Part shown: piece by piece, positions 1 to 22,183 of the stretch
Numbering within the stretch: position 1 is the first letter of the stretch
Layout: each line of letters opens with the position of its first letter
IMG/VR virus record: IMGVR_UViG_2778261277_000014
DNA length: 22,183 nt
Origin: a virus
Taxonomy: Duplodnaviria; Heunggongvirae; Uroviricota; Caudoviricetes
Direction: 5' to 3' (one strand)
Position numbers and translations under genes: made by a program
The notes under the pieces: model-generated
What the model saw: only the letters and a program-made list of their open reading frames with translations
Told to the model about the DNA's origin: nothing
The model's database searches: none

Positions 1-1
1 A

Positions 2-1297
2 TTAATTTTTCATTGCTTCGTTATGGGGCATGGTTGGGGCAAACTCGCTTAACTGTGTATTTAACAAAGCTACCTGTGCATTATTGTTTTCAGACATCCA
101 TTTTCCGTATACCTGAAATACCATTTGCGCATCTGCATGGCCCATCTGGTTTGCTATAAATGCCGGGTTAGCACCAGCTGTCAGCGACCAGCAGGCATAA
201 GTATGTCTCGACTGATATGATTTTCGATGGCGGAGTCCGGCACGTTTTATCGCTGCGTCCCACATCTGCCTTATTGAGTCAACGGTAAAATGGTCACCAT
301 AATTTTTTACTCTCGCTGACACTTCAGGTTGAAAAACAAAGGTGCATTTATGTTTTTCTGTTCTGCCATACTCTCTGAGGTGAACATCAATGATATGCTC
401 TTTGCTCAGTCTCGTTAATGTCATCTGACTCCGGAGAGCGTCGATTGCTGGCTTAATAAGATGAATGACCCGATTGGTTCCCGCCTGTGTTTTTGGGACC
501 GTGAAACGGTCTTTTGCTAAATTTCTCCTGATCATCATTGTTCCATTTTTCAGATCTATGTCCTCCCATCCAAGTGCACACAGCTCACCAGGGCGAACGC
601 CAGTATAAACAGAAACACACCATAAATTTTTGGCTTGCTGATTTCTGCACGCATCGATAAGACGGATGAATTCCTCCCGCGAAAGAGGATCCGGAATGGT
701 TCTTGATTCCTTTAATGGCGAGATCCCCTTAAACGGGTTATCTGCCAGGTAACCGTTATCAACACCAAACTGGAACACGGCGTTAAGATTTGTCATGTAA
801 TTATTTACAGTTACAGCCGATCTCCCTGGTTGTGTAACAATATAGTTACTTTTGGGGATCTGGTATCCAGTCAGTAGCTCTTTACGAACCTCCAGTAATT
901 TTTCTTTATTAATCGATGAGGCAAGATTTTTTTCACCGATTATGCTCAGGATATTTTTGATGACGGCACGGTATGTGTTGAGTGATGTTTTTGCGACTTC
1001 AGTTTCTTTCAGTGCCAGAAATTTTTCAGCCAGTTCTTTTATGGTTAAATCTTGTCGGGCCTCACCAAATTTTTCCAGATTGCGTGAGGAGGGAAACTGT
1101 TTTGCATAGTCGAAAACACCAGTTTTTATTGCGTAACAAACAGAGGCGCGTAGCTCACCTGCAACGCGCCTGTTTTTTGCTGTGTCAGGAACCCCCAGGT
1201 TTTCCCTGACTCTTACGCCTTTATAAACAAACCAGATACGTAATTTCCCTCCATGGTTTTCCACGCCTGTCGGATATTTCATTTCAACTTCTCTCAT
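2..1297 (-). CDS. int: Phage integrase (tyrosine recombinase); probable true start at Met6 (coordinate 1282), complete with TAA stop at 2-4
   Basis: 431-aa ORF at the prophage edge next to an excisionase-like gene; C-terminal region has conserved R, H-x-x-R and Y residues typical of tyrosine recombinases (RHTYACW...). Weak SD (GAGAGAAG) before ATG at 1282, none before 1297. Confidence 0.88.
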   Translation of the reverse strand: MREVEMKYPTGVENHGGKLRIWFVYKGVRVRENLGVPDTAKNRRVAGELRASVCYAIKTGVFDYAKQFPSSRNLEKFGEARQDLTIKELAEKFLALKETEVAKTSLNTYRAVIKNILSIIGEKNLASSINKEKLLEVRKELLTGYQIPKSNYIVTQPGRSAVTVNNYMTNLNAVFQFGVDNGYLADNPFKGISPLKESRTIPDPLSREEFIRLIDACRNQQAKNLWCVSVYTGVRPGELCALGWEDIDLKNGTMMIRRNLAKDRFTVPKTQAGTNRVIHLIKPAIDALRSQMTLTRLSKEHIIDVHLREYGRTEKHKCTFVFQPEVSARVKNYGDHFTVDSIRQMWDAAIKRAGLRHRKSYQSRHTYACWSLTAGANPAFIANQMGHADAQMVFQVYGKWMSENNNAQVALLNTQLSEFAPTMPHNEAMKN

Positions 1298-1316
1298 TAG
1301 TTAGTGTGGCTTTTAG

Positions 1317-1568
1317 TCAAGTAAGATGACGTCTTGGTCTTGCTGATGCCTGGCGCTCAATCCAGCGATCAATTTCTTCCAGGTTGTAAAAGCATGGACT
1401 GTTATCCCATGGCATACCGTCATGAGCGACATGCTTATATTCCCTTCCTTCCATAAACGATTTTTCCCGGGCCTTTTTTAACGTACCTTTTTTTATTCCT
1501 TTCAGCGCAATTAACTGCTCTTCGGATACCCATTTGCCGGGAGAGACAATCATGATTACTTCGCTCAT
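1317..1568 (-). CDS. xis: Excisionase-like small DNA-binding protein (Xis)
   Basis: 83-aa ORF immediately upstream of int on the same strand; contains a 'GREY' motif reminiscent of lambda Xis (DGREY); position is typical. Confidence 0.6.
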   Translation of the reverse strand: MSEVIMIVSPGKWVSEEQLIALKGIKKGTLKKAREKSFMEGREYKHVAHDGMPWDNSPCFYNLEEIDRWIERQASARPRRHLT

Positions 1569-1640
1569 CGATTTCTTTATCTCTTACATCAGACGAGCGC
1601 CGGTTGCAGAATACCAGTCACAACCGGCGACAGTTGAACA

Positions 1641-4112
1641 TTAAGAATCAGCCTGACTCGGGATCAGTTTTTGCCAGATAGCTGAAACGTATTTTGCCTG
1701 GTAACGGGCGTCATCAAGTGCATTATGGCGCTCACCTTCGAATGGAATAGCCGTTCTGGCATCGAAGTCTATGGCTTTCCCCAGCTCAACGATTGTGCGT
1801 ACATCGCGATCGTTGTAGTAACGCCACGGGCAGGGGATCCCCTGCCGTTCGTATGAACGGCGCAAAATCGTGTTGTCGAAGTTGGCTCCATTTCCCCAGA
1901 CATGAACAAAAAATTCACCGGAGTTTTCGTCGATAAATTCCCGCAATTGTAACAGTGCATCATCTAACGGGATTTCATCGGTCATAATGGCAGATTGCGC
2001 TTCGCGTGATTGTTTAAGCCACCATTTAATGGTGTCCCGATCAATGACTCCGCCAGCAGTTTCCAGATCGATAGTCTTACTAAATTCCGGTCCCATATCT
2101 CCGGTTTGCGGATCGAAAAATATTGCACCTATTGAGATAATCGGGGCATCGGGATTTTTTCCCATGGTTTCAAGGTCGATCATCAGATGAATCCCCGCTC
2201 TGCTGGTGGATGTGAGATTATGATGACCGTTTGCCTTAATTAAGGGATCTGACGCCTCGCCAGTTTCACTATCGCTGGCATGATGCTGATTGCCGCCAGT
2301 GTTCTCCTTGTGCTGATGCGCAGTACCTTCCATTTCCTCCGGATCATTTTCCTGAACTTCAGGCTGATTCTCTCCATCGAATATTTCCTGGTATGTTGCG
2401 TCACCCATCACCGCACCACAATCAGGGCAGTTGCCGCCACCGCTCTGACCGCAGGCGGTGCAGATCTTTTCCGGTTCCTGTTGCACTACTGGTTCAGGTT
2501 GTTTCGTTTCTGGCTCGTTTTGTTGCGTATTTGGGCTGTTTTGTTCCGCTTTCTGGTCGTTCTGTTCCGTTTCTTGCTGGTTCTGGTTCACAGAATCGCG
2601 GGTCTGGATCCCCTTAATCCATTTCGGATCATTCGGGTCGCTAATCCCTTCAACAAATTTACCACGTGATACTGCAAGCAGTTCATCGGCGTCAGGCTGG
2701 CTGATATTGGCTGCCTGCATAATTTTGTTTACTTCGTCAGCGGTAACTTTTACTGACCCTGGTTGTGCGGTCGTGTCAGATGCACCAGTATTTTGTTGTG
2801 AACCTGAGTATGTACCGTTTTTGCGGGCGAAATATTCTTCTTTCGTGATTTCAGTAGCCCCAGCAGACAGCGCCTTATCCAGACCAGAAAGTTTATTTGC
2901 GCGACCGTATTTTTCGCCATCCTTGTCGGTGAAGAGGAAGTAGAACGGCCCCTCACGTTCTACAGATGGTTCGACTTCCACTTTGCATTCGGTTTTTTCG
3001 TTGTCTGGAATTGCCGTTTCCACTGCATCAGTTTCTGGTACTGGCGACGAGAGAGTATCAGTTGCGCTCTGATTTGTTCCTTCATCTTCAAACACGCCCT
3101 TTGTAGTCAGGTATTCAGTAATGTATTTGTTCAGTGCCACAGGGTCTTTGTGAATGTCGATCGGACGTTCACGGACAAGGCCAAAAATAGTCTGGCGGTC
3201 GTAGCGAAGGGCATCAGGCTGTTTGCGCATTGATGCCGAGATACGCTTCCAGTCTTCGCGGTCGTTGTCGATAACTTCATTTTTTGCCCAGCGATGGATG
3301 CTGCCGTCAATGTTTCCGGCATCCACATCACCAGGCCAGAGAGCGTAGGCCAGTTCGTCATCCAGTGTTTTCCATGTCTGCTTGTATTCGCGATGAATGG
3401 CAGCAATGACCGGGTTGATTTTTCCTGTTGAATTTTCAGTGTGCTGTTGATTGGCTCTGGCGCGGGCGAGATCAACAACAGACGTGTATTTTCCGGCTTC
3501 CTTGCGTTCACCTTCGCGACGTTTTTTCCAGATGCGCATCTCTGCCTGAATTTCGGGCCATTTGGCACCAGGCTTACATTTATGCTTAACCCACCCGATG
3601 GCATGCAGCTTAAGCTCCGGATACATAGCGTTAACTTCTGGCATTTTCATCAACGCTTCAACGATATGGCCGTCGAATGTTGCCATGTCTTCCTGCAACA
3701 ATTCCTGTGCGCTAATCACCATATCAACAGTGATGTTTTCACATGTGTCGAACTTAACCATGACAGCGTTCTGTACTTCAGGGGCTAGGTTGTCAAAAGT
3801 GACGTTCATCGGATCGGATTCAGTCTCGACCGGGACAAAGGAAGCAGACGCCTCATCCCAGCGGTTTTCCTGCATATATTCAGCATCCCAGGAATCGAGG
3901 GCAGGGCGGGGTATACCGGGTTTATCCTCGCAAACAAGAAATTTATAAGCGCAGTCCTGAGCAGCCGGATAATGTTCCAGGAATTGCCAGTGAAATTTTG
4001 CGCGGGCGCGACGTTCATCACCGGCTTCAATGGCAGTGGCTACAGCGACGGCACCTTCTTCCTTTATTGCCTGTTCGTCCGGAATGGCGGCGCAAATAAA
4101 GACTTTACTCAT
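1641..4112 (-). CDS. Large multidomain exonuclease: N-terminal unknown domain, C4 zinc-ribbon, Q/E/N/P-rich repeat linker, C-terminal DnaQ-like DEDDh 3'-5' exonuclease domain
   Basis: 823-aa ORF; C-terminus carries Exo I (MIDLETMG), Exo II (WGNGANFD) and Exo III (HNALDDARY) motifs; CTACGQSGGGNCPDCG zinc-ribbon; sits where lambdoid recombination/exonuclease genes lie. Confidence 0.85.
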   Translation of the reverse strand: MSKVFICAAIPDEQAIKEEGAVAVATAIEAGDERRARAKFHWQFLEHYPAAQDCAYKFLVCEDKPGIPRPALDSWDAEYMQENRWDEASASFVPVETESDPMNVTFDNLAPEVQNAVMVKFDTCENITVDMVISAQELLQEDMATFDGHIVEALMKMPEVNAMYPELKLHAIGWVKHKCKPGAKWPEIQAEMRIWKKRREGERKEAGKYTSVVDLARARANQQHTENSTGKINPVIAAIHREYKQTWKTLDDELAYALWPGDVDAGNIDGSIHRWAKNEVIDNDREDWKRISASMRKQPDALRYDRQTIFGLVRERPIDIHKDPVALNKYITEYLTTKGVFEDEGTNQSATDTLSSPVPETDAVETAIPDNEKTECKVEVEPSVEREGPFYFLFTDKDGEKYGRANKLSGLDKALSAGATEITKEEYFARKNGTYSGSQQNTGASDTTAQPGSVKVTADEVNKIMQAANISQPDADELLAVSRGKFVEGISDPNDPKWIKGIQTRDSVNQNQQETEQNDQKAEQNSPNTQQNEPETKQPEPVVQQEPEKICTACGQSGGGNCPDCGAVMGDATYQEIFDGENQPEVQENDPEEMEGTAHQHKENTGGNQHHASDSETGEASDPLIKANGHHNLTSTSRAGIHLMIDLETMGKNPDAPIISIGAIFFDPQTGDMGPEFSKTIDLETAGGVIDRDTIKWWLKQSREAQSAIMTDEIPLDDALLQLREFIDENSGEFFVHVWGNGANFDNTILRRSYERQGIPCPWRYYNDRDVRTIVELGKAIDFDARTAIPFEGERHNALDDARYQAKYVSAIWQKLIPSQADS
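2480..2600. repeat. Imperfect ~20-bp tandem repeats inside the exonuclease gene (encode the Q/N/E/P-rich low-complexity linker)
   Basis: Direct reading: reiterated units resembling TTCTGG(C/T)..GTT(T/C)TGTT(C/G)CG on the plus strand; on the minus strand they encode repeated QN.QE..EQN peptide units. Confidence 0.6.
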
Positions 4113-4204
4113 TTTGTTTTACCTCATTACAGATTTAAGGGTGAACAAATCCCTGCCATTGCTGGCATATAAGAATGAAATCGGATGTTTATTACGGAAC
4201 TGTT

Positions 4205-4396
4205 TTAAAGACCTGCCGGGATTTCGTTATTATCCTGGTGAATAACTTTATCGACCGGGTAACAGTTACCGGGAATTTTCTGTTCGGTTGCTGCAGTCAT
4301 ACACTCCTGCATTGTCCTGTGAACACTGACTGCAATATCAACTGGCTCTCCGGAAACAAGAAAAACTGTCAGAACAAGCGCAAATGCTGAATTCAT
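4205..4396 (-). CDS. ydfD: YdfD-like small protein (63 aa) with N-terminal signal peptide/TM segment
   Basis: ATG at 4396 preceded by AAGGA SD; start overlaps the upstream gene's stop (ATGA); hydrophobic N-terminus MNSAFALVLTVFLVSG; position directly after dicB as in Qin prophage (recalled, not searched). Confidence 0.7.
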   Translation of the reverse strand: MNSAFALVLTVFLVSGEPVDIAVSVHRTMQECMTAATEQKIPGNCYPVDKVIHQDNNEIPAGL

Positions 4397-4581
4397 TGTG
4401 CACATCCTTTTGGCATCAGACGTAAACGAGCCAGCATTGAAACAATGCATATTTTATTTAATAGCTCCCGTTCTTGTTTTCTCTTGTTAATGGCATCTTC
4501 AGTAAATACAGGGTTACTGATAGTGACACCAATTTCAAAACAACCTTCAGACGTATTAACGTTTGGTAATAACGTTTTCAT
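4393..4581 (-). CDS. dicB: Cell division inhibitor DicB (62 aa)
   Basis: ATG at 4581 with GAGGA SD; the 62-aa product MKTLLPNVNTSEGCFEIG...MPKGCAQ matches my recollection of E. coli DicB; lies immediately downstream of a DicF-like sRNA, the canonical arrangement. Confidence 0.8.
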   Translation of the reverse strand: MKTLLPNVNTSEGCFEIGVTISNPVFTEDAINKRKQERELLNKICIVSMLARLRLMPKGCAQ

Positions 4582-4750
4582 TATCGCGTCCTCAACAATG
4601 AATTTTGTGATGCAGTGCCTGGTGCCTCCAGGTGACGTTAACCAGTTAACAATTAACGCCGGATACAGAGAATCCACCCATAACACTGTTTTTGGTTTTA
4701 ACTGTTCCGCGTGCGCTTAGCCGCATTCACCGCATCACAAAATTCACTTT

Positions 4751-4808
4751 AAAAACGGCGGCAGAGCAGTCACGGAGTAAAACTGATACCGCCAAACGTC
4801 ACCAGAAA
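4751..4808 (-). ncRNA. dicF: DicF-like small RNA (about 53 nt) ending in an intrinsic terminator (GGCGG...GCCGCC stem + U tract)
   Basis: Minus-strand sequence UUUCUGGUGACGUUUGGCGGUAUCAGUUUUACUCCGUGACUGCUCUGCCGCCGUUUUU matches, from memory, the published DicF sRNA at all but about one position; located between the ydf genes and dicB. Confidence 0.65.
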
Positions 4809-5067
4809 ATTGATAACAGAGGGCGTTGCAGCGGGGTTGTCACTTAAGCGTATGGTCAACCTGACAACTCGGTGTCCTCAACGGGGAAGGAATAACCCCG
4901 CCATACTTACCGCCGCGCCATTTTGCGGGTTGCCACAACCGGAAGCGCACGGTCGAATTAAATTTAACGACACCGTACAGTGAGACGAACTTCGCCGTGC
5001 GCTTTCGTGTTGTGTGCCTGCTTTTAACCACGTCAGGCGAGGTGGTATCCTTAAAATCACCACAGTT

Positions 5068-5643
5068 TTAAGGATTCATTAAGCAATGTCGCAACCACCA
5101 ATAAATCCGCTTAAGAACATGAAAATTGATTACTGGTATAAAGCGCTTACAGTTGTTGGCGCTGCGTTGTTTGTCTTTAATGGAACGTCTTTTTTTGACA
5201 GATATCCCGTTGTTCCATTGGGTTTTTTGTCCTCCGGCATCTTTTTTATTGGTTTGGGGGAGTGGATTAATCACCCTCTCAAAGTGAGATTTATTGGTCC
5301 TGGAGTTTGGACTTGTGGATATAATCGTTCTTCGTGCGCACTCGGTATCATCTTCGACATACTTGGTTGTTTCCTGATTGTTACAGGAGTCGTCAAGTTC
5401 TTCTGATGTAAAACCGCAAATGGGGCACGTAACGGGAATTTTGAAAAGCGTTTCTCCGGGTTCCAGAACAAAATTTTCTGCGGTCTGATTTTGCTTCTCA
5501 TATTTGTGCTCCGCGTCATTGTGAGAGCACATTCTTATTCTGAGTGCCTGTTTAAACTCACTGAAGCTGAGAGCTTCTTCGCCTTCGGCAAGGCCTTCGA
5601 AGTATTCTTCGTAAGCCTTTTCCATGATTGTGTCGAAATCCAT
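5068..5643 (-). CDS. Hypothetical protein (191 aa) of the dicB-type operon; acidic N-terminal half with a CPICG motif, K/R/N-rich C-terminal half
   Basis: ATG at 5643 with AGGTGA SD; its start overlaps the stop of the upstream ydfA-like gene (translational coupling). The C-terminal half is compositionally odd and lies antisense to a plausible membrane-protein ORF (see 5086..5406). Confidence 0.5.
   Translation of the reverse strand: MDFDTIMEKAYEEYFEGLAEGEEALSFSEFKQALRIRMCSHNDAEHKYEKQNQTAENFVLEPGETLFKIPVTCPICGFTSEELDDSCNNQETTKYVEDDTECARRTIISTSPNSRTNKSHFERVINPLPQTNKKDAGGQKTQWNNGISVKKRRSIKDKQRSANNCKRFIPVINFHVLKRIYWWLRHCLMNP
5086..5406 (+). CDS. Alternative call: small 3-TM membrane protein (106 aa) antisense to the 3' half of the 191-aa ORF
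   Basis: ATG with TAAGGA SD; three hydrophobic segments flanked by charged residues. Cannot be distinguished from the opposite-strand ORF by sequence inspection alone. Confidence 0.3.
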   Translation: MSQPPINPLKNMKIDYWYKALTVVGAALFVFNGTSFFDRYPVVPLGFLSSGIFFIGLGEWINHPLKVRFIGPGVWTCGYNRSSCALGIIFDILGCFLIVTGVVKFF

Positions 5644-5644
5644 A

Positions 5645-5800
5645 TCACTCACCTGAGTTTCTTTCCAGCCAGCGACGGGCACCATTTTCGGTTTTAAACG
5701 TTTTGCTTTTGGTATACGTCATTGCGGTGAACGTGCCGTCCTGGTTTGGAAACACGCCGTACACCAGAGATTCGTTGTTGCCAAGATCGATAGTATCCAT
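5645..5800 (-). CDS. YdfA-like small protein (51 aa), first gene of the dicB-type operon
   Basis: ATG at 5800 preceded by GAGGT SD; stop overlaps next gene's ATG; size and position match ydfA of Qin (recalled). Confidence 0.55.
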   Translation of the reverse strand: MDTIDLGNNESLVYGVFPNQDGTFTAMTYTKSKTFKTENGARRWLERNSGE

Positions 5801-5876
5801 GCTGACCTCATTTCCCCTTAACGCCGGGGTAGCGGAACTGTTTGCTGAGAACACCGTGCGGTGTCTTGATGGAGGT

Positions 5877-5905
5877 AATTTAGTTTTCTCATTATTTTTC
5901 GTCAA
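5877..5905 (-). promoter_or_regulatory. Candidate promoter of the dicB-type operon (-35 TTGACG, 17-bp spacer, -10 TAAATT on the minus strand)
   Basis: Read directly on the minus strand about 80 nt upstream of the ydfA-like start; a DicA-operator-like motif lies just upstream (5916-5935). Confidence 0.4.
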
Positions 5906-5915
5906 GGTTTTTTGA

Positions 5916-5935
5916 TGAGAAAACTCAAGTATTGG
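5916..5935. promoter_or_regulatory. Operator-like motif TGAGAAAACTCAAGTATTGG (copy 1), followed by an 8-bp inverted repeat GTATTGGC-N10-GCCAATAC (5929-5954)
   Basis: Near-identical copy of the motif in the dicA-dicC intergenic region (6452-6470); imperfect palindrome TGAG-N4-CTCA. Confidence 0.5.
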
Positions 5936-6451: not shown

Positions 6452-6470
6452 TGAGAAAACTCAATATTGG
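6452..6470. promoter_or_regulatory. Operator-like motif TGAGAAAACTCAATATTGG (copy 2) in the dicA/dicC divergent promoter region
   Basis: Same 13-bp core TGAGAAAACTCAA as at 5916-5928; sits between the divergent repressor and cro-like genes. Confidence 0.5.
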
Positions 6471-6477
6471 AGGTGCG

Positions 6478-6705
6478 ATGTTTAAATCAGACGTAATTAA
6501 TTTTTACGGTACGAAAGCCAAAGTAGCGAAAGCTGCTGGCGTTGACCCATCTGCTGTTTCTCAATGGCAAGAGCTGGTTCCTGAAGGTCGCGCGATGCGT
6601 CTACAGGAGGCATCTGGCGGCGAGCTTCAGTATGATCCCAAGGTTTATGACGAATATCGTAAGACGAAGCGGGCGGGGCGGTTGAACAATGAAAATCACT
6701 CCTGA
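6478..6705 (+). CDS. dicC: Cro-like regulator DicC / YdaS-type HTH protein (75 aa)
   Basis: ATG at 6478 with GGAGGTG SD; product contains ...AKAAGVDPSAVSQWQ... HTH; C-terminal sequence matches recalled DicC; divergent from dicA. Confidence 0.82.
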   Translation: MFKSDVINFYGTKAKVAKAAGVDPSAVSQWQELVPEGRAMRLQEASGGELQYDPKVYDEYRKTKRAGRLNNENHS

Positions 6706-8787: not shown

Positions 8788-9720
8788 ATGGAAATCAACA
8801 AAGAAAAATTGTCAGGTTTACTTAACTACTTCGAGTCTCGCAAGAAATACGCTGCAACTCGAATATCTAGTTTATCCAGTCAGAATGAGATCTGTTTCGC
8901 TTTGTCAGGATTGACGTTTCGAAACGGGCCTTATGTTTTCCAAGACGTAGGTGAATTAAGGGAGGTACTTCATCCACCAGGAGAGATAGAGTTAGCCAAA
9001 GCGCTTAAGAGCAAGTCGCTACTCAGCGCTGTTGCTCGTCATATGCCCGCAGTTACGCATGAGCTTGCGTTGCAAAGCAGTGAGTCGAAATTTTCTCAAT
9101 CAGACCTGACTATCGGATGGTGGATCATATCCGCGATCCGATGCCGCACACTCACCGATATACTTGTTCCTGCAGTAGCAAGTGCATCTTGGGATGTATT
9201 CCCTGCTCTTCAAGCCAACTCGTGTGAAGTCCAACTTCTTGAGGACGTGCCGGCAGTTCGGAGAATAAGCCCAAGTGTAGAGATATCAGTAGAGTCTCTC
9301 GACTGGGTTCAAGAGAATCTCAAGCGTTGGATAGATCTGCTAGAGCAACCAGCATTCCGGCTCGCTATTGATTCTTTAACTACTCACAACCAACACGCGA
9401 ATTTGAGAATGGCTGCTGCTGCTTTATGGGCAGGATTTGAAGCGCTCTTTGGAATCAATTCAGAGCTTCGTTTTCGTCTTGCTCTTATGGCCGCAGCATA
9501 TCTTGAGGAGCGAGGGCCTGATCGTTTAGCCACCTATCGTAGGGTTAAGAAGCTGTATGACTACCGTTCGAAGGCAGTGCATGGGGGAGCTACGTCAGAT
9601 AACTTTTTAGTTGAGCATATAATTGAGGTACGAGTGCTTTTATCCCGATTAGTGTGTCGCATGACAGAGATCGGAAAAATGCCCACAACCGACGATTACG
9701 AGGAACGGCTTCTAACTTAA
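8788..9720 (+). CDS. Hypothetical 310-aa protein with a C-terminal HEPN-like R-x4-H-G motif (YDYRSKAVHGG); candidate abortive-infection RNase
   Basis: Long ORF with its own upstream AT-rich region and hairpins; R-x4-6-H is the HEPN signature; located in an accessory region next to a hok toxin. Function is inference. Confidence 0.7.
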   Translation: MEINKEKLSGLLNYFESRKKYAATRISSLSSQNEICFALSGLTFRNGPYVFQDVGELREVLHPPGEIELAKALKSKSLLSAVARHMPAVTHELALQSSESKFSQSDLTIGWWIISAIRCRTLTDILVPAVASASWDVFPALQANSCEVQLLEDVPAVRRISPSVEISVESLDWVQENLKRWIDLLEQPAFRLAIDSLTTHNQHANLRMAAAALWAGFEALFGINSELRFRLALMAAAYLEERGPDRLATYRRVKKLYDYRSKAVHGGATSDNFLVEHIIEVRVLLSRLVCRMTEIGKMPTTDDYEERLLT

Positions 9721-10191: not shown

Positions 10192-10402
10192 TTTCACATT
10201 GGCGAGGTAACGGTAGTTAAGTAGAATGGCTGCGGGTGCTTGAGGCTATCTGCCTCGGGCATGAACACCAACGGCAGATAGAGAAAAGCCCCAGTTAACA
10301 TTACGCGTCCTGCAAGACGCTTAACATTAATCTGAGGCCAATTTCATGCTAGACACATGTAGGTTAGCCTCTTACGTGCCGAAAGGCAAGGAGAAGCAGG
10401 CT

Positions 10403-10558
10403 ATGAAGCAGCAAAAGGCGATGTTAATCGCCCTGATCGTCATCTGTTTAACCGTCATAGTGACGGTACTGGTAACGAGGAAAGACCTCTGCGAGGTACG
10501 AATCCGAACCGGGCAGACGGAGGTCGCTGTCTTCACAGCTTACGAACCTGAGGAGTAA
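10403..10558 (+). CDS. hok: Hok/Gef-family type I toxin (HokD/RelF-like, 51 aa)
   Basis: MKQQKAMLIALIVICLTVIVTVLVTRKDLCEVRIRTGQTEVAVFTAYEPEE is a textbook Hok sequence; AAGGAG SD upstream; intrinsic terminator downstream. Confidence 0.9.
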   Translation: MKQQKAMLIALIVICLTVIVTVLVTRKDLCEVRIRTGQTEVAVFTAYEPEE

Positions 10559-10774: not shown

Positions 10775-11026
10775 ATGATGAACATCGAAGAACTGCGTAA
10801 AATTTTTTGTGAAGATGGCCTCTATGCTGTGTGCGTTGAAAATGGAAATCTTGTTAGTCATTACCGCATTATGTGTTTGCGAAAGAATGGGGCTGCGTTA
10901 ATTAATTTTGTGGATGGTCGAGTGACAGACGGATTTATCTTGCGCGAAGGTGAGTTTGTCACTTCATTACAGGCACTGAAAGAGATCGGAATAAAAGCAG
11001 GCTTTTCAGCTTTTGCAGAAGAATAA
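10775..11026 (+). CDS. Hypothetical protein (83 aa), Rem-like by size/position
   Basis: GGAAGGA SD before ATG; 83 aa, lying between hok and the DUF968 gene as rem does in Qin (recalled). Confidence 0.6.
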   Translation: MMNIEELRKIFCEDGLYAVCVENGNLVSHYRIMCLRKNGAALINFVDGRVTDGFILREGEFVTSLQALKEIGIKAGFSAFAEE

Positions 11027-13770: not shown

Positions 13771-13846
13771 GGCCCTTTAGCTCAGTGGTGAGAGCGAGCG
13801 ACTCATAATCGCCAGGTCGCTGGTTCAAATCCAGCAAGGGCCACCA
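13771..13846 (+). tRNA. tRNA with CAU anticodon (ileX/ileZ-like, probably tRNA-Ile2; Met not excluded)
   Basis: Full cloverleaf by eye: acceptor GGCCCTT/AAGGGCC, D-arm GCTC..GAGC, anticodon loop CTCATAA, T-arm GCTGG-TTCAAAT-CCAGC, 3' ACCA; resembles E. coli ileX. Confidence 0.85.
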
Positions 13847-13946
13847 TCACAAACCGCCATTAGCTTATCAGGAAGAGCAGACGACACGATAACAGGGTTG
13901 TTGGTGCGGGGGCGGGTCCCCGATGGCGGTCCATTATCGGTATTCA

Positions 13947-14023
13947 GCGTTGTTAGCTCAGCCGGACAGAGCAATTGCCTTCTAAGCAATCGGTCACTGG
14001 TTCGAATCCAGTACAGCGCGCCA
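13947..14023 (+). tRNA. tRNA-Arg (UCU anticodon), argN/argO/argU-like
   Basis: Cloverleaf: acceptor GCGTTGT/ACAGCGC, anticodon loop CTTCTAA, T-arm ACTGG-TTCGAAT-CCAGT, 3' GCCA; resembles argU. Confidence 0.85.
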
Positions 14024-14487: not shown

Positions 14488-15020
14488 ATACATATCTGGA
14501 TTATCACCTGTTACGGTAAAAAGTGATTGCTTACTGTTTTTGTGAATGGCATTGCAGCAGCCGGATAATGTCAGTGCTGGCTGACGGTGTGCTGGTGGCG
14601 GGTGTGGTAGTTGTTGCTTTCCCGTTGCTGAAAAAGAAAACGCCAGACTGTTAGCCGGGTATCAGTTAGCGGGAGAAATTTTTAAATACTTCACAATTCA
14701 GGCGGTTGACTGTTCTCTGGTTTGCGGGGAGTTTGTTAAAAGAAACTGGCATGGTGAATCCCCCTGTGCGGAGGGGCAATCAGCGAGTAGGTATATGGGA
14801 TAATCGCGGATTCAGGTGCTGGTACTGAATTCACCGGGAGGCACCCGGCACCATGCACTTCAATAGATTCTCTCCACATTATGGATATTCTTTCAGAATA
14901 TCCCACGCAGACTTTGTGTAAATGTTAACAAATGTGCGTTTTATTTGATCTGATTCGCTGTTTGAGCGTCCAAAACAACGGTATATATAATCCTTTACTA
15001 TATGACATATGTGAGGAAAA

Positions 15021-15449
15021 ATGGGTTTTCGTAGCGCATCAATTCTTACGTTGATTATTAGTGGGATTATTATCGGGTGCACTGATGCTGTATCGACAAA
15101 TTATCATGACCGTACATCATATTACTCCGATAAAGCAATAGAGACACAGTATGTGAGTTCATCTGAACGTACTTCTGATGTTAGTGAGGATATCCGTCTG
15201 TATGCCCATCAAATCAAGAGCGCCATCGAAAAACAGTTCGGGGATGCGAGTAAGTATTCAGGAAAAGAGTGTACACTGAGAATGCATATGGCCCCGAATG
15301 GCCTTCTACTGGAGGTTAAAAGAGAAAGTGGAGACCTCGATTTATGTCGTGAAGCGATGAATGCGATAAAGAATGCTGATATACCTGCCCCCCCTTCGCC
15401 GGAAGTATATAAAGTATTTCAAAATGGGGTGCTGGATTTTAAACCCTGA
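15021..15449 (+). CDS. Lipoprotein with TolA domain-III-like C-terminal domain (142 aa)
   Basis: Signal peptide with lipobox IIGC; C-terminal ~80 aa (YAHQIKSAIEKQFGDASKYSGKECTLRMHMAPNGLLLEV...PEVYKVFQNGVLDFKP) closely resembles the C-terminal domain of E. coli TolA (recalled ...FKNAPLDFKP ending). Confidence 0.8.
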   Translation: MGFRSASILTLIISGIIIGCTDAVSTNYHDRTSYYSDKAIETQYVSSSERTSDVSEDIRLYAHQIKSAIEKQFGDASKYSGKECTLRMHMAPNGLLLEVKRESGDLDLCREAMNAIKNADIPAPPSPEVYKVFQNGVLDFKP

Positions 15450-15599: not shown

Positions 15600-15995
15600 G
15601 TGGGATTAAAGAAAATCGTTATGTTGACTTTTTGGGTCGGTTTTGTTGCGGGATGCACACCTTTACACCCTTCAGATTGCCACAAAACTACTGCTACAGG
15701 TAGTTGCAGTTCAGGACGCTGGGATGATCAGGATGAATGGGGGGCGCAAGCGCGGGGAATCAGAGCTGCAATTAATGCCAAACTTGATGAGCCGCATAAC
15801 TGGAAAGGGAAAAAATGCAGGTTGCATATGGAATTCTCTCAGGATGGCACGGCGTTAAAAATATCTACCAGTAACGGTGATAAAGCCTATTGCGAAGCGA
15901 TAAAGTCCGCAGCTCATAAAGCCAAATTTCCGGCCTTCAACAATCCGGAAGTCTACAGAGATTTTCAGAAATCTGGCTTTGACATGCGAGGTTAG
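15600..15995 (+). CDS. Second, divergent lipoprotein paralogue with TolA-III-like C-terminal domain (131 aa)
   Basis: GTG start 6 nt after GAGGAG SD; lipobox VAGC; C-terminal block (GKKCRLHMEFSQDGTALKI...CEAIKSAAHKAKFPAFNNPEVYRDFQ) shares the same pattern as the upstream paralogue. Confidence 0.75.
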   Translation: MGLKKIVMLTFWVGFVAGCTPLHPSDCHKTTATGSCSSGRWDDQDEWGAQARGIRAAINAKLDEPHNWKGKKCRLHMEFSQDGTALKISTSNGDKAYCEAIKSAAHKAKFPAFNNPEVYRDFQKSGFDMRG

Positions 15996-17802: not shown

Positions 17803-18053
17803 ATTAATATTAAATCGGATTATTTTTAGCGCTGAATGTGAAATTTAAATAAAAAGGACTCTTCCATGAGTCAAAATCCTTGAAATCTTAAGGGTAAGAT
17901 AAAAGGTCATTAGACAGAATGACACGTTTTATTAATAAATAAAGCTATTGTTTCATTCGTGTGTTTTTCTTTACAAAAGTAATCCTTGCTATGGTTGGTT
18001 AATCATGCGTTAATGGTGTTCTGGTTTGTTACAAAATTATCTGAAGCAGTCAT

Positions 18054-18062
18054 TGTTATAAT
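18054..18062 (+). promoter_or_regulatory. Extended -10 element (TGtTATAAT) of a candidate promoter for the cold-shock gene, giving a ~95-nt 5' UTR
   Basis: Read directly in an AT-rich region; no good -35, consistent with UP-element/extended -10 promoters of csp genes. Confidence 0.4.
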
Positions 18063-18162
18063 TTTATTATTTGTACCTCTTGAGATTTCCTTGTTGGTTT
18101 TTCTCTCTGATATTTTTTTTCGGACCATTCTGCCCAAGGGCTAACTTCTTCAAAAGGTAATA

Positions 18163-18378
18163 ATGATGTCTAACAAAATGACTGGTTTAGTGAAATGGTT
18201 TAACCCTGAAAAAGGTTTTGGTTTCATCACGCCGAAAGATGGTAGCAAAGATGTGTTTGTGCATTTCTCAGCTATTCAGAGCAACGATTTCAAAACGTTA
18301 ACTGAGAATCAGGAAGTCGAATTTGGTATTGAGAACGGACCTAAAGGCCCTGCAGCTGTTCATGTAGTGGCACTTTGA
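18163..18378 (+). CDS. Cold-shock protein, CspA family (CspB/CspI-like)
   Basis: RNP motifs KGFGFI and VFVHF; about 70 aa; prophage-borne csp genes are typical of Qin. Confidence 0.9.
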
Positions 18379-18583
18379 GGTAGAAAATATTACAAACCAT
18401 ATTCACTTTAGATGCCCGTGTTGCCATGGTTCTCAGTATAGAACATCATCTTTTGATGTTTCTGACAGAAATCCTTTCGGGGCAAAATGTATCTTTTGTA
18501 AATCAATGATGATTACATTTGATAATATTTCACAATACTTAAATGTTAGCCATCTGTCGTTAGATTTAAGAAAGTGAAAATGA

Positions 18584-20289: not shown

Positions 20290-20817
20290 ATGTCAAATGT
20301 GAGCGGGATCGGTGATGCTTATTACTGGAGTGTTTTTAAAATCGCCGAGGCCTTTGGGCTTCACCGGGACACAGTAAAAAAACGGCTCCTCGCGGCCAAC
20401 ACTCCTGTGGCTGCGACTGTCAGGGGGAACCCCGTTTACGCCCTGCAGCATGTCGGGCCCGCCCTGTTTAGTGTGAAGCATGAGGCAGCAGACTCTGTTC
20501 ATGATCCATCCCGTATGGAGCCGAAAGAGAGAAAAGACTGGTACCAGTCTGAAAATGAAAGGATCAAGCTGGAAAAGGAGCAGCGAAAACTCATCCCAGT
20601 TGATGAAGTAGTCATCGTCTATTCGTCCATGAGAAAGGCTGTCGTCCAGGTTCTGGAGACAATTCCGGATGTTCTTGAACGCGATTGCGCCCTGACTCCT
20701 CAGGCCGTCGGCGTTGTACAGCAGGCCATTGATGACCTGCGATACACTCTTCAGGAAAAATCCTACGAGGCTTGTGCTGCTGAATTAATTCCTGATGAGG
20801 AAGGAGAGAGTCTCTAG
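20290..20817 (+). CDS. Terminase small subunit (Nu1/NohA-like)
   Basis: N-terminal HTH-like region, acidic C-terminus (AAELIPDEEGESL) resembling the lambda Nu1 tail; ATG at 20290 with GGAG SD; immediately upstream of a gpA-like large subunit. Confidence 0.72.
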   Translation: MSNVSGIGDAYYWSVFKIAEAFGLHRDTVKKRLLAANTPVAATVRGNPVYALQHVGPALFSVKHEAADSVHDPSRMEPKERKDWYQSENERIKLEKEQRKLIPVDEVVIVYSSMRKAVVQVLETIPDVLERDCALTPQAVGVVQQAIDDLRYTLQEKSYEACAAELIPDEEGESL

Positions 20818-20825
20818 GAGGAATA

Positions 20826-21152
20826 ATGGGTTTTTCATCAGCCCGAAATTTGGGAAGGGACATATCGGCAGGATTTTCCCCACCACGTCGCATGCCGATT
20901 TCGGAGGCTGTTAAAAAATTCATGCGTGTTCCCAAGGGGGCTGGTAACTCGGTGCCATGGGATCCTGAACTGACACCCTACATCATTGAGCCCATGAACT
21001 GCCTGGCATCGCGTGAATACGATGCGGTGATTTTTGTTGGTCCTGCGCGAACAGGGAAGACCATTGGTCTGATCGATGGATGGATTGTCTATACCATCGT
21101 TTGCGATCCTTCGGACATGCTCGTTGTGCAGATGACCGAAGATAAGGCGTAA
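20826..21152 (+). pseudogene. Terminase large subunit (lambda gpA-like), N-terminal 108-codon fragment truncated by IS insertion
   Basis: WDPELTPYIIEPMN...VGPARTGKT parallels lambda gpA N-terminus (WETLPFQRAIMNAM...KSARVGYSKM); reading frame ends at a TAA created at the IS boundary (GTAAGCG at 21149). Confidence 0.72.
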
Positions 21153-22183
21153 GCGTTAACGGAGCGCCGTATTGACACTTATTTATTGGTGAGTACTACG
21201 TTCCATGGCAGGAGTTCATCAACTCGGTTGGAAGGCCATTCCGGCAGCACGCTCAGGATATGGCGCAGATACGCTTCCGGATCGATACCGTTCAGTCGGC
21301 AGGTACCGATCAGCCCGTACAGTAGCGCACCACGCTCGCCACCATGATCGTTGCCGAAGAACATGTAATTCTTTTTCCCGAGACAGACGGCACGAAGCGC
21401 TCTTTCTGCTGTGTTATTGTCCGCCTCCGCCAGACCGTCATCACTGTAATAACAGAGGGCGTCCCACTGATTCAGTACATAGCTGAACGCTTCGCCCAGT
21501 CTGGATTTTTTCGACAGCGTGCCATTCTTCTCCACCATCCATTCATGCAGCGACGTCAGTAACGATTTGCTTCGCTGCTGCCTGACTGCAAGACGTTCAG
21601 ACTCCGGTAAGCCCCGTATTTCATCCTCGATGGCGTACAGTTCACTGATACGCTTCAGGGCTTCTTCTGCCGTCGTACTTTTGCTGCTGATGTATACATC
21701 GTGGATTTTTCGCCGGGCATGGGCCCAGCACGCAACTTCTGTCAGTGCACCACCTTCACGTTCGGCACTGAACAGCCGATCGTAACCGCTGAACGCATCC
21801 GCCTGCAGGATACCCCGGAAGGGACGAAGGTGTTGTACCGGATGTTTTCCCTGCCTGTCTGGTGAGTAGGCGAACCAGACCGCCGGTGGCTCTGATGAGC
21901 CCGCATTCCGGTCATCCCGGACATACGTCCAGATGCGTCCTGTTTTTGCCTTTTTTCTGCCCGGTGCCAGCACTTTTACTGGTGTGTCGTCAGTGTGAAC
22001 CTTGCGGGTGTTCATCACGTAATGGTACAGGGTATCATTCAGCGGAGTCATTAACTGACAACATGCGTCAACCCAGTTGGAGAGTAATGCCCGGCTCAGT
22101 TCGATGCCCTGGCGGGCAAAGATTTCACTCTGACGATACAGTGGCAGATGTTCGCAGTATTTTCCCGTTAACACGCGGGCAAG
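21149..22183 (-). mobile_element. IS66-family insertion sequence, right end (partial; continues beyond the window)
   Basis: Element terminus begins GTAAGCG (characteristic of IS66-family ends) immediately 3' of a TnpC-type transposase gene; interrupts the terminase gene. Confidence 0.78.
21179..22183 (-). CDS. IS66-family transposase TnpC, C-terminal ~334 aa (N-terminus lies outside the window)
   Basis: Frame is open to the window edge (track's Met at 22174 is a GTG); contains the CWAHARRK motif typical of IS66 TnpC. Confidence 0.85.
   Translation of the reverse strand, partial: LARVLTGKYCEHLPLYRQSEIFARQGIELSRALLSNWVDACCQLMTPLNDTLYHYVMNTRKVHTDDTPVKVLAPGRKKAKTGRIWTYVRDDRNAGSSEPPAVWFAYSPDRQGKHPVQHLRPFRGILQADAFSGYDRLFSAEREGGALTEVACWAHARRKIHDVYISSKSTTAEEALKRISELYAIEDEIRGLPESERLAVRQQRSKSLLTSLHEWMVEKNGTLSKKSRLGEAFSYVLNQWDALCYYSDDGLAEADNNTAERALRAVCLGKKNYMFFGNDHGGERGALLYGLIGTCRLNGIDPEAYLRHILSVLPEWPSNRVDELLPWNVVLTNK

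Follow-up and report, generated by a model that had tools for sequence, protein, structure and literature searches.

The closest described relative of the locus analysed here is the dicBF operon of the Qin prophage in Escherichia coli K-12 MG1655 (ydfABC-dicF-dicB-ydfD-ydfE′, b1571-b1577). Its promoter, dicBp, lies beside the gene for a DicA-type repressor and has been equated with lambda PL; it is repressed by DicA and relieved by Rem, which derepresses dicBp in K-12, by urea, by heat or by spontaneous switching (PMC10448788). RNase III cleavage of the polycistronic transcript yields a 190-nt species and RNase E cleavage a 53-nt species, transcripts ending at the small RNA DicF being prominent and longer ones scarce, with read-through to ydfD also seen (PMC10448788). 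DicF represses ftsZ, xylR, pykA and manX, the first three by direct regulation (PMC5069750); DicB uses ZipA to bring MinC to the septum and prevents the entry of phage DNA that depends on ManYZ (PMC6832061); and YdfD binds IspG and causes lysis (PMC8835842). Multiple dicBF copies are found in the enterohaemorrhagic E. coli O157:H7 prophages CP-933O, CP-933M and CP-933P. Here we examine a 22,183-nt stretch of viral DNA (IMG/VR record IMGVR_UViG_2778261277_000014; the whole stretch is ‘the window’ below) which, judged from its sequence, very probably carries the dicBF early-left operon of a Qin-family lambdoid prophage located beside rspB, working in the K-12 manner.

The three products DicF, DicB and YdfD identify the module, with match scores that are far beyond chance. 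DicF is recognized by Rfam model RF00039, covered in full (model positions 1-52 of 52, window 4807-4756 on the minus strand) with a score of 72.5 bits (gathering score 48, E 1.7e-14); Rfam gave no second DicF copy when one was sought in the window. Compared with K-12 dicF (b1574), 52 of 53 nt are identical, the sole change being at position 53 (window 4756), the last base before the U tract, where K-12 has C and this copy has G. The small RNA lies upstream of dicB in the same operon and on the same strand, and dicB starts 174 nt downstream, a spacing equal to that in K-12. DicB is identical to K-12 DicB in all 62 residues, matches PF05358 over its full length (1-62 of 62, 136.8 bits, cutoff 27, E 1.9e-40) as well as NF049927 (132.8 bits, cutoff 100), and is RefSeq WP_000854559.1 in strains with identical DNA. 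YdfD agrees with its K-12 counterpart in 61 of 63 residues (changes V6A and I57N), matches PF07358 at 90.1 bits (cutoff 25, E 8.5e-26) and is hydrophobic near its N-terminus (residues 3-25); its start codon overlaps the stop of dicB as ATGA, by which ydfD counts as translationally coupled to dicB. An initial annotation of positions 4205-4810, a range that runs from the final base of the ydfD stop codon to 2 nt beyond the DicF 5′ end, had proposed DicF with its terminator hairpin followed by dicB and an ATGA-overlapping ydfD-like gene, and had set alignment to K-12 dicF and dicB beforehand as the test; the near-identity found, with no substantial divergence, bears these assignments out. No evidence was counted against the identification of DicF, dicB and ydfD, and the module is an already known, near-identical copy of the well-studied Qin dicBF operon, in a common allele.

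The DicF terminator hairpin is predicted at 4793-4757, followed by UUUUU at 4755-4751 (-16.6 kcal/mol by direct folding); a generic terminator scan did not report it, because its loop exceeds the 8-nt maximum of that scan. A GC-rich hairpin with a U tract within an operon could also act chiefly to terminate or attenuate transcription internally and so restrict expression of dicB, ydfD, exonuclease, xis and int, with the RNA as a by-product, and the prominence in K-12 of transcripts ending at DicF over longer, scarce ones (PMC10448788) would suit such a role. We think this quite unlikely, as the 5′ single-stranded part and the loop of DicF, which have no role in termination, are unchanged relative to K-12, the exact 52-nt core is found in more than 120 viral contigs though the precursor upstream exists as two very different alleles, and direct DicF regulation of ftsZ, xylR and pykA has been published (PMC5069750). 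The 190-nt precursor-equivalent region differs from K-12 at three positions (window 4924, 4869 and 4756). Among 125 loci, 76 carry the K-12 type of precursor upstream of DicF, with at most 8 mismatches over 190 nt, as does the window; the second allele has about 36-45 differing positions. In the minimum-free-energy fold of a 243-nt DicF precursor, the segment at about 4895-4916 pairs with the 3′ strand of the terminator (4755-4769), with a z-score of only -1.5; the modelled pairing could represent an alternative, anti-terminator-like structure or an RNase III substrate helix.

Table 1. Features of the early-left operon and associated control genes, with positions in the window
Feature	Position	Strand	Basis or remark
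Tyrosine integrase, intact form of K-12 intQ	2-1297	-	PF00589, PF12167; RefSeq start 1282, giving 426 aa
Excisionase	1317-1568	-	PF06806, E 1.6e-31; RefSeq excisionase
823-aa exonuclease, intact form of K-12 ydfE pseudogene	1641-4112	-	PF16473, phrog_2082
ydfD, 63 aa, lysis protein	4205-4396	-	Pfam PF07358 (DUF1482); RefSeq name ‘lysis protein YdfD’
dicB, 62 aa, division inhibitor acting through MinC	4393-4581	-	Pfam PF05358, NCBIfam NF049927
DicF-dicB spacer, including dicB ribosome-binding site GAGGA	4582-4755	-	Differs from K-12 by substitutions at 4732 and 4718
DicF small RNA, 53 nt	4756-4808	-	Rfam RF00039 and alignment to K-12 dicF
190-nt DicF precursor-equivalent region (putative ends, by homology)	4756-4945	-	Matches RNase III-generated K-12 precursor
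520-bp cassette replacing ydfB 3′ end and ydfC	5026-5545		K-12 homology lost between 5545 and 5026
Operon-sense open reading frame (ORF) opposite ORF106	5068-5685	-	Open frame
ORF106, 106 codons, antisense to operon	5086-5406	+	Conserved homologues
ydfB remnant without K-12 C-terminus, reading in frame into cassette ORF	5542-5643	-	RefSeq: ydfB, incomplete; K-12 homology stops at 5546
ydfA (DUF1391), first operon gene	5645-5800	-	PF07151
dicBp-equivalent promoter, TTGACG - 17 nt - TAAATT, sigma-70-like	5877-5905	-	Promoter scan
Operator-like 13-mer TTGAGTTTTCTCA	5916-5928 and 5879-5891 (flanking/overlapping promoter); 6452-6464 (between repressor and cro-like genes)		Repeat search
DicA-family repressor, 135 aa	5993-6400	-	NCBIfam PRK09706 ‘DicA’, 239 bits (cutoff 101)
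DicC/Cro-like regulator	6478-6705	+	PF14549 P22_Cro; 71% identical to K-12 DicC
rem antirepressor	10775-11026	+	80/83 residues identical to K-12 Rem (96%)

Read along the minus strand, the locus consists in turn of DicA-family repressor, promoter, ydfA, ydfB remnant, 520-bp cassette, DicF, dicB, ydfD, exonuclease, excisionase and integrase (Table 1), such that a leftward operon starts from a promoter beside a DicA-type repressor and runs into exonuclease, xis and int, as expected for the early-left operon in which the initial annotation had placed the module. The first gene, ydfA, together with its leader is 99.4% identical in nucleotide sequence to K-12 (window 5871-5546), and the promoter hexamers align with the K-12 hexamers TTGACC and TAATCT at an equal distance from ydfA. 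Near-identity with K-12 resumes at 5871, just downstream of the promoter, and a mosaic joint therefore lies approximately at the transcription start. The repressor is only 57% identical to K-12 DicA, the Cro-like regulator also departs from its K-12 counterpart, and the operators differ. The 13-mer TTGAGTTTTCTCA has three matches where 0.86 would be expected, a number reached in 5 of 100 shuffles, and its copies are putative operators by virtue of their position. By sequence comparison, then, the immunity region is a heteroimmune relative of the K-12 circuit with its own operators.

The window and K-12 Qin share collinear blocks over most of the window's length in BLAST comparison. The first base of the window aligns with position 20710 of the K-12 locus, 36 nt within the annotated Qin boundary, and in strains S30 and E47, which carry 100% identical DNA, the integrase adjoins rspB, the K-12 Qin site. 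In K-12 an IS2-associated deletion has left ydfE and intQ as pseudogenes, whereas exonuclease, xis and int are whole in the window: window 1-1161 is 99.0% identical to the intQ pseudogene, the IS2 remnant of K-12 occupies the place of window 1162-3345, and the ydfE pseudogene corresponds to the first ~770 nt of the 823-aa exonuclease gene, collinear up to the IS2 remnant. The exonuclease itself matches phrog_2082 over residues 1-822 of 823 and carries a C-terminal DEDDh 3′-5′ exonuclease domain (PF16473, residues 642-813). Its middle region shows a weak likeness to RecE/exonuclease VIII at 270 bits, far under the 1269-bit cutoff. The window shows, on this homology, the undeleted arrangement of the left arm, of which the ydfE and intQ pseudogenes are what is left in K-12. 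The initial annotation had described an intact version of the Qin dicB operon, ‘but attached’ to an int/xis/exonuclease module. Intactness holds for DicF, dicB and ydfD but not upstream of DicF, where ydfB is truncated, ydfC is replaced and the immunity is of another type; the contrast drawn with Qin is unwarranted, as this arm is also found, decayed, in K-12 Qin and isolated phages show the same order. An arm acquired from another phage and fused to Qin was rejected, since remnants of these genes survive in K-12 at matching positions.

We apply the K-12 mechanism to this locus because its products are identical or nearly so. By analogy with K-12, the DicA-like repressor would hold the promoter off in the lysogen, and relief of repression, whether through Rem, through stress or as a spontaneous event in some of the cells, would give a polycistronic transcript, which RNase III and then RNase E would cleave to the 190-nt and 53-nt forms of DicF ending at the terminator hairpin, while part of transcription would pass the hairpin into dicB and ydfD. 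Hfq-stabilized DicF would then pair with the ribosome-binding region of ftsZ and with the xylR, pykA and manX mRNAs; DicB would bind MinC, reach the septum via ZipA and dismantle the Z ring, and would also stop ManYZ-dependent phage DNA entry; and YdfD would inhibit IspG and at strong expression cause lysis. For DicB, the MinC- and ZipA-dependent division block and the ManYZ inhibition would follow from protein identity with K-12. For DicF, nucleotides 1-52 are the K-12 sequence and should therefore have the same capacity to pair with the ftsZ translation-initiation region.

Several points weigh against so direct a transfer from K-12. The predicted DicF:ftsZ leader duplex (RNAduplex) has the same energy here as in K-12 (-38.9 and -38.5 kcal/mol), yet this energy is equalled by 44 of 500 shuffled small RNAs and is thus a weak test. 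The low identity of the repressor to DicA makes Rem control of this promoter an extrapolation from K-12. The V6A, I57N variant of YdfD may not be fully active, because K-12 YdfD lost lysis after small changes, lysis being impaired by deletion of 1-5 terminal residues or by N1A or L63A (PMC8835842). Lastly, replacement of ydfC by a cassette with an antisense gene could have changed the read-through to DicF.

The same gene order is found in isolated phages. Tritos (OV696610), HannyBb (PP925841) and mEp460_ev081 (LR597641) all run from repressor and ydfA/ydfB through DicF, dicB and ydfD to the 823-aa exonuclease, excisionase and integrase. DicF is explicitly annotated in the Tritos record, and Tritos keeps ydfC, unlike the window; HannyBb is 99.2% identical over window 4150-5100, the cassette ORF included. 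These three are complete phage genomes, whereas the terminase gene of the window prophage is interrupted: an IS66-family transposase ORF (21179-22174, minus strand) lies within 21150-22183 and the element cuts the terminase large-subunit gene at ~21150, with identity to the otherwise identical E47 prophage stopping at 21148. The interruption probably makes the prophage defective in packaging its DNA, although its left arm is intact.

It is possible, at somewhat less than even credence, that the module serves mainly the phage lytic programme, as an early-left takeover with a division stop and a superinfection block at induction, rather than being domesticated by the host. The precedent would be lambda Kil, described as a small toxic product of a lambdoid early-left (PL) operon that prevents the FtsZ ring from assembling and acts on FtsZ in a ZipA-dependent way (PMC3961180); DicB in contrast acts through MinC and DicF on the ftsZ mRNA, and between Kil and DicB or DicF there is no sequence relationship, the likeness being one of role only. 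The continuation of the shared order into intact exonuclease, xis and int in Tritos, HannyBb and mEp460_ev081, the intact left arm of the window and the presence of the module in more than 120 IMG/VR viral contigs all speak for a lytic role, and these phage occurrences update a 2016 statement that DicB or DicF was in no phage genome then available (PMC5069750). Such a role is nevertheless compatible with the K-12-type working we favour, the molecular mechanism being the same, and persistence of the module in heavily decayed prophages such as K-12 Qin, as well as its presence at a median of two places per genome, fits retention at the level of the host.

A 951-nt query around DicF-dicB-ydfD matches 4732 of 5426 complete E. 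coli genomes, with the median just given and a maximum of 11 places per genome, and 57 phage records. Exact DicF sequences (the 52-nt core, with C or G allowed at position 53) account for the viral contigs counted above, and G53, the form seen in the window, occurs at 28 of 125 exact-DicF loci. Downstream of exact DicF, dicB follows at 109 of 114 loci with enough flanking sequence (the denominator throughout), ydfD at 106 of 112 and an exonuclease homologue at 54 of 69. Upstream, ydfC is present at 72 of 119 loci and missing at 47, and the cassette gene is present at 16 of 118; the ydfA-ydfB-ydfC gene set varies within the family. Among GTDB species representatives, exact DicF is found in E. 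coli, E. ruysiae, Shigella flexneri and a short (2.5-kb) contig of a Collinsella metagenome-assembled genome (locus L137), and 247 nt of Aeromonas phage AP1 (MT713136.1, 249906-250152), near the end of this jumbo-phage record, are 100% identical to window 4572-4818, a segment made up of DicF and the spacer. The Aeromonas phage and Collinsella occurrences are probably E. coli contamination and not real hosts.

The 520-bp cassette upstream of DicF is where the window departs from the K-12 gene set. The complete ydfA-ydfB-ydfC set that precedes dicF in K-12 was not found, ydfB being truncated and ydfC gone, and RefSeq annotates between 5545 and 5026 only the incomplete ydfB. The cassette occurs in 806 of the 5426 complete E. 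coli genomes (~15%), once per genome, and the cassette-bearing allele is kept at ≥99% identity in ~790 genomes. Antisense to the operon it encodes ORF106, which has 60 database relatives of the same length, with 36-58% identity outside Escherichia (Yersinia, Herminiimonas, Reinekea) and invariant WYKA and G-x-GEW-x-NHP motifs (consensus GLGEWINHP). The protein has three hydrophobic helices and is modelled by AlphaFold2 with a predicted local distance difference test score (pLDDT) of 83.7; it has no match in Pfam, NCBIfam, PHROGs or PADLOC, and a Foldseek search of the model against BFVD gave nothing under E 0.03. In other enterobacterial prophages the ORF106 gene adjoins the repressor gene and is convergent with it. 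At two loci in related E. coli prophages (L143, 3139-3803; L146, 3252-3731), the interval from the DicA-type repressor to the cassette/dicB region has received toxin-antitoxin pairs, namely HigB with a helix-turn-helix antitoxin and PaaA2 with ParE; insertions appear to recur at the head of the early-left operon.

A single finding was unexpected: the frame opposite ORF106, in the sense of the operon, is unusually free of stops. It is stop-free in all enterobacterial lineages examined, down to 51% protein identity, and despite a third-position identity of merely 0.44-0.52, while the antisense strands of two non-enteric ORF106 homologues have 6 and 14 stops. When Leu and Ser codons were resampled with the codon usage of the window, the frame was open in just 1.3-2.5% of trials per lineage. 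The first ~25 codons, which lie outside ORF106, keep an F-x-IP-x-x-CP(I/V)CGF motif, and all between-lineage differences in the IP and CPICGF codons are synonymous. Conservation in the overlap, however, tracks the ORF106 frame, which counts against a conventional operon-sense protein, and an AlphaFold2 model of the operon-sense ORF (pLDDT 41, from 8 sequences) has no confident fold and is uninformative beyond that. We regard it as doubtful, if conceivable, that the cassette is made of two wholly overlapping antisense genes, one for the membrane protein ORF106, which would probably be a moron expressed in the lysogen, and the other an operon-sense frame kept stop-free by selection. The operon-sense frame may encode a real basic, CPxCG-containing protein at the position of lambda N, or its ribosomes may shield the dicBp transcript from Rho before DicF, dicB, ydfD, exonuclease, xis and int.

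The cassette also bears on whether the module, intact in sequence, might be uncoupled from the dicBp-type promoter, with collision or polarity at the cassette attenuating transcription before DicF, dicB and ydfD. One would then look to the truncation of ydfB and the absence of ydfC, to ORF106 as a real gene on the opposite strand, and to a prophage that is at least partly defective through the cut terminase gene. We nonetheless consider uncoupling very unlikely given the conservation of DicB (100%), DicF (52/53) and the precursor (187/190), the wide occurrence of this near-invariant allele in bacterial genomes and in the isolated phage HannyBb, and an operon-sense frame that is stop-free in every enterobacterial lineage examined, which suggests translation through the cassette.

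Elsewhere in the window, a 310-aa ORF at 8788-9720, between a DUF977 gene and hokD, is named a HEPN domain protein by RefSeq and has no Pfam or PADLOC match; the same slot holds a SIR2-family gene in strain S30 and relBE, ydfV and flxA in K-12, and seems to be a variable hotspot that takes up morons or defence genes. ORFs with a TolA C-terminal domain lie at 15021-15449 and 15600-15995, between the Q antiterminator/tRNA region and the lysis cassette. Further Rfam matches, at 10234-10408, 13771-14020, 14720-14910 and 18008-18424, comprise the sok antitoxin RNA (adjoining hokD), phage tRNA-Ile and tRNA-Arg, the STnc100 small RNA and the cspA-type thermoregulator leader of cspI.

DicF, DicB and YdfD are textbook products of the Qin prophage, and to these the present copy adds an allele only. 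The undeleted left arm and the occurrence of the module in isolated phages update the older view of dicBF as confined to defective prophages. The item that deserves a further look is the cassette, which lies just outside the range first annotated: in ~15% of E. coli genomes ydfC has been swapped for a cassette whose conserved but unannotated gene, antisense to the operon, encodes a membrane protein. If the openness of the operon-sense frame is truly selected, this cassette would be a manageable example of overlapping antisense genes, or of read-through protected by translation, within a well-studied toxic operon.

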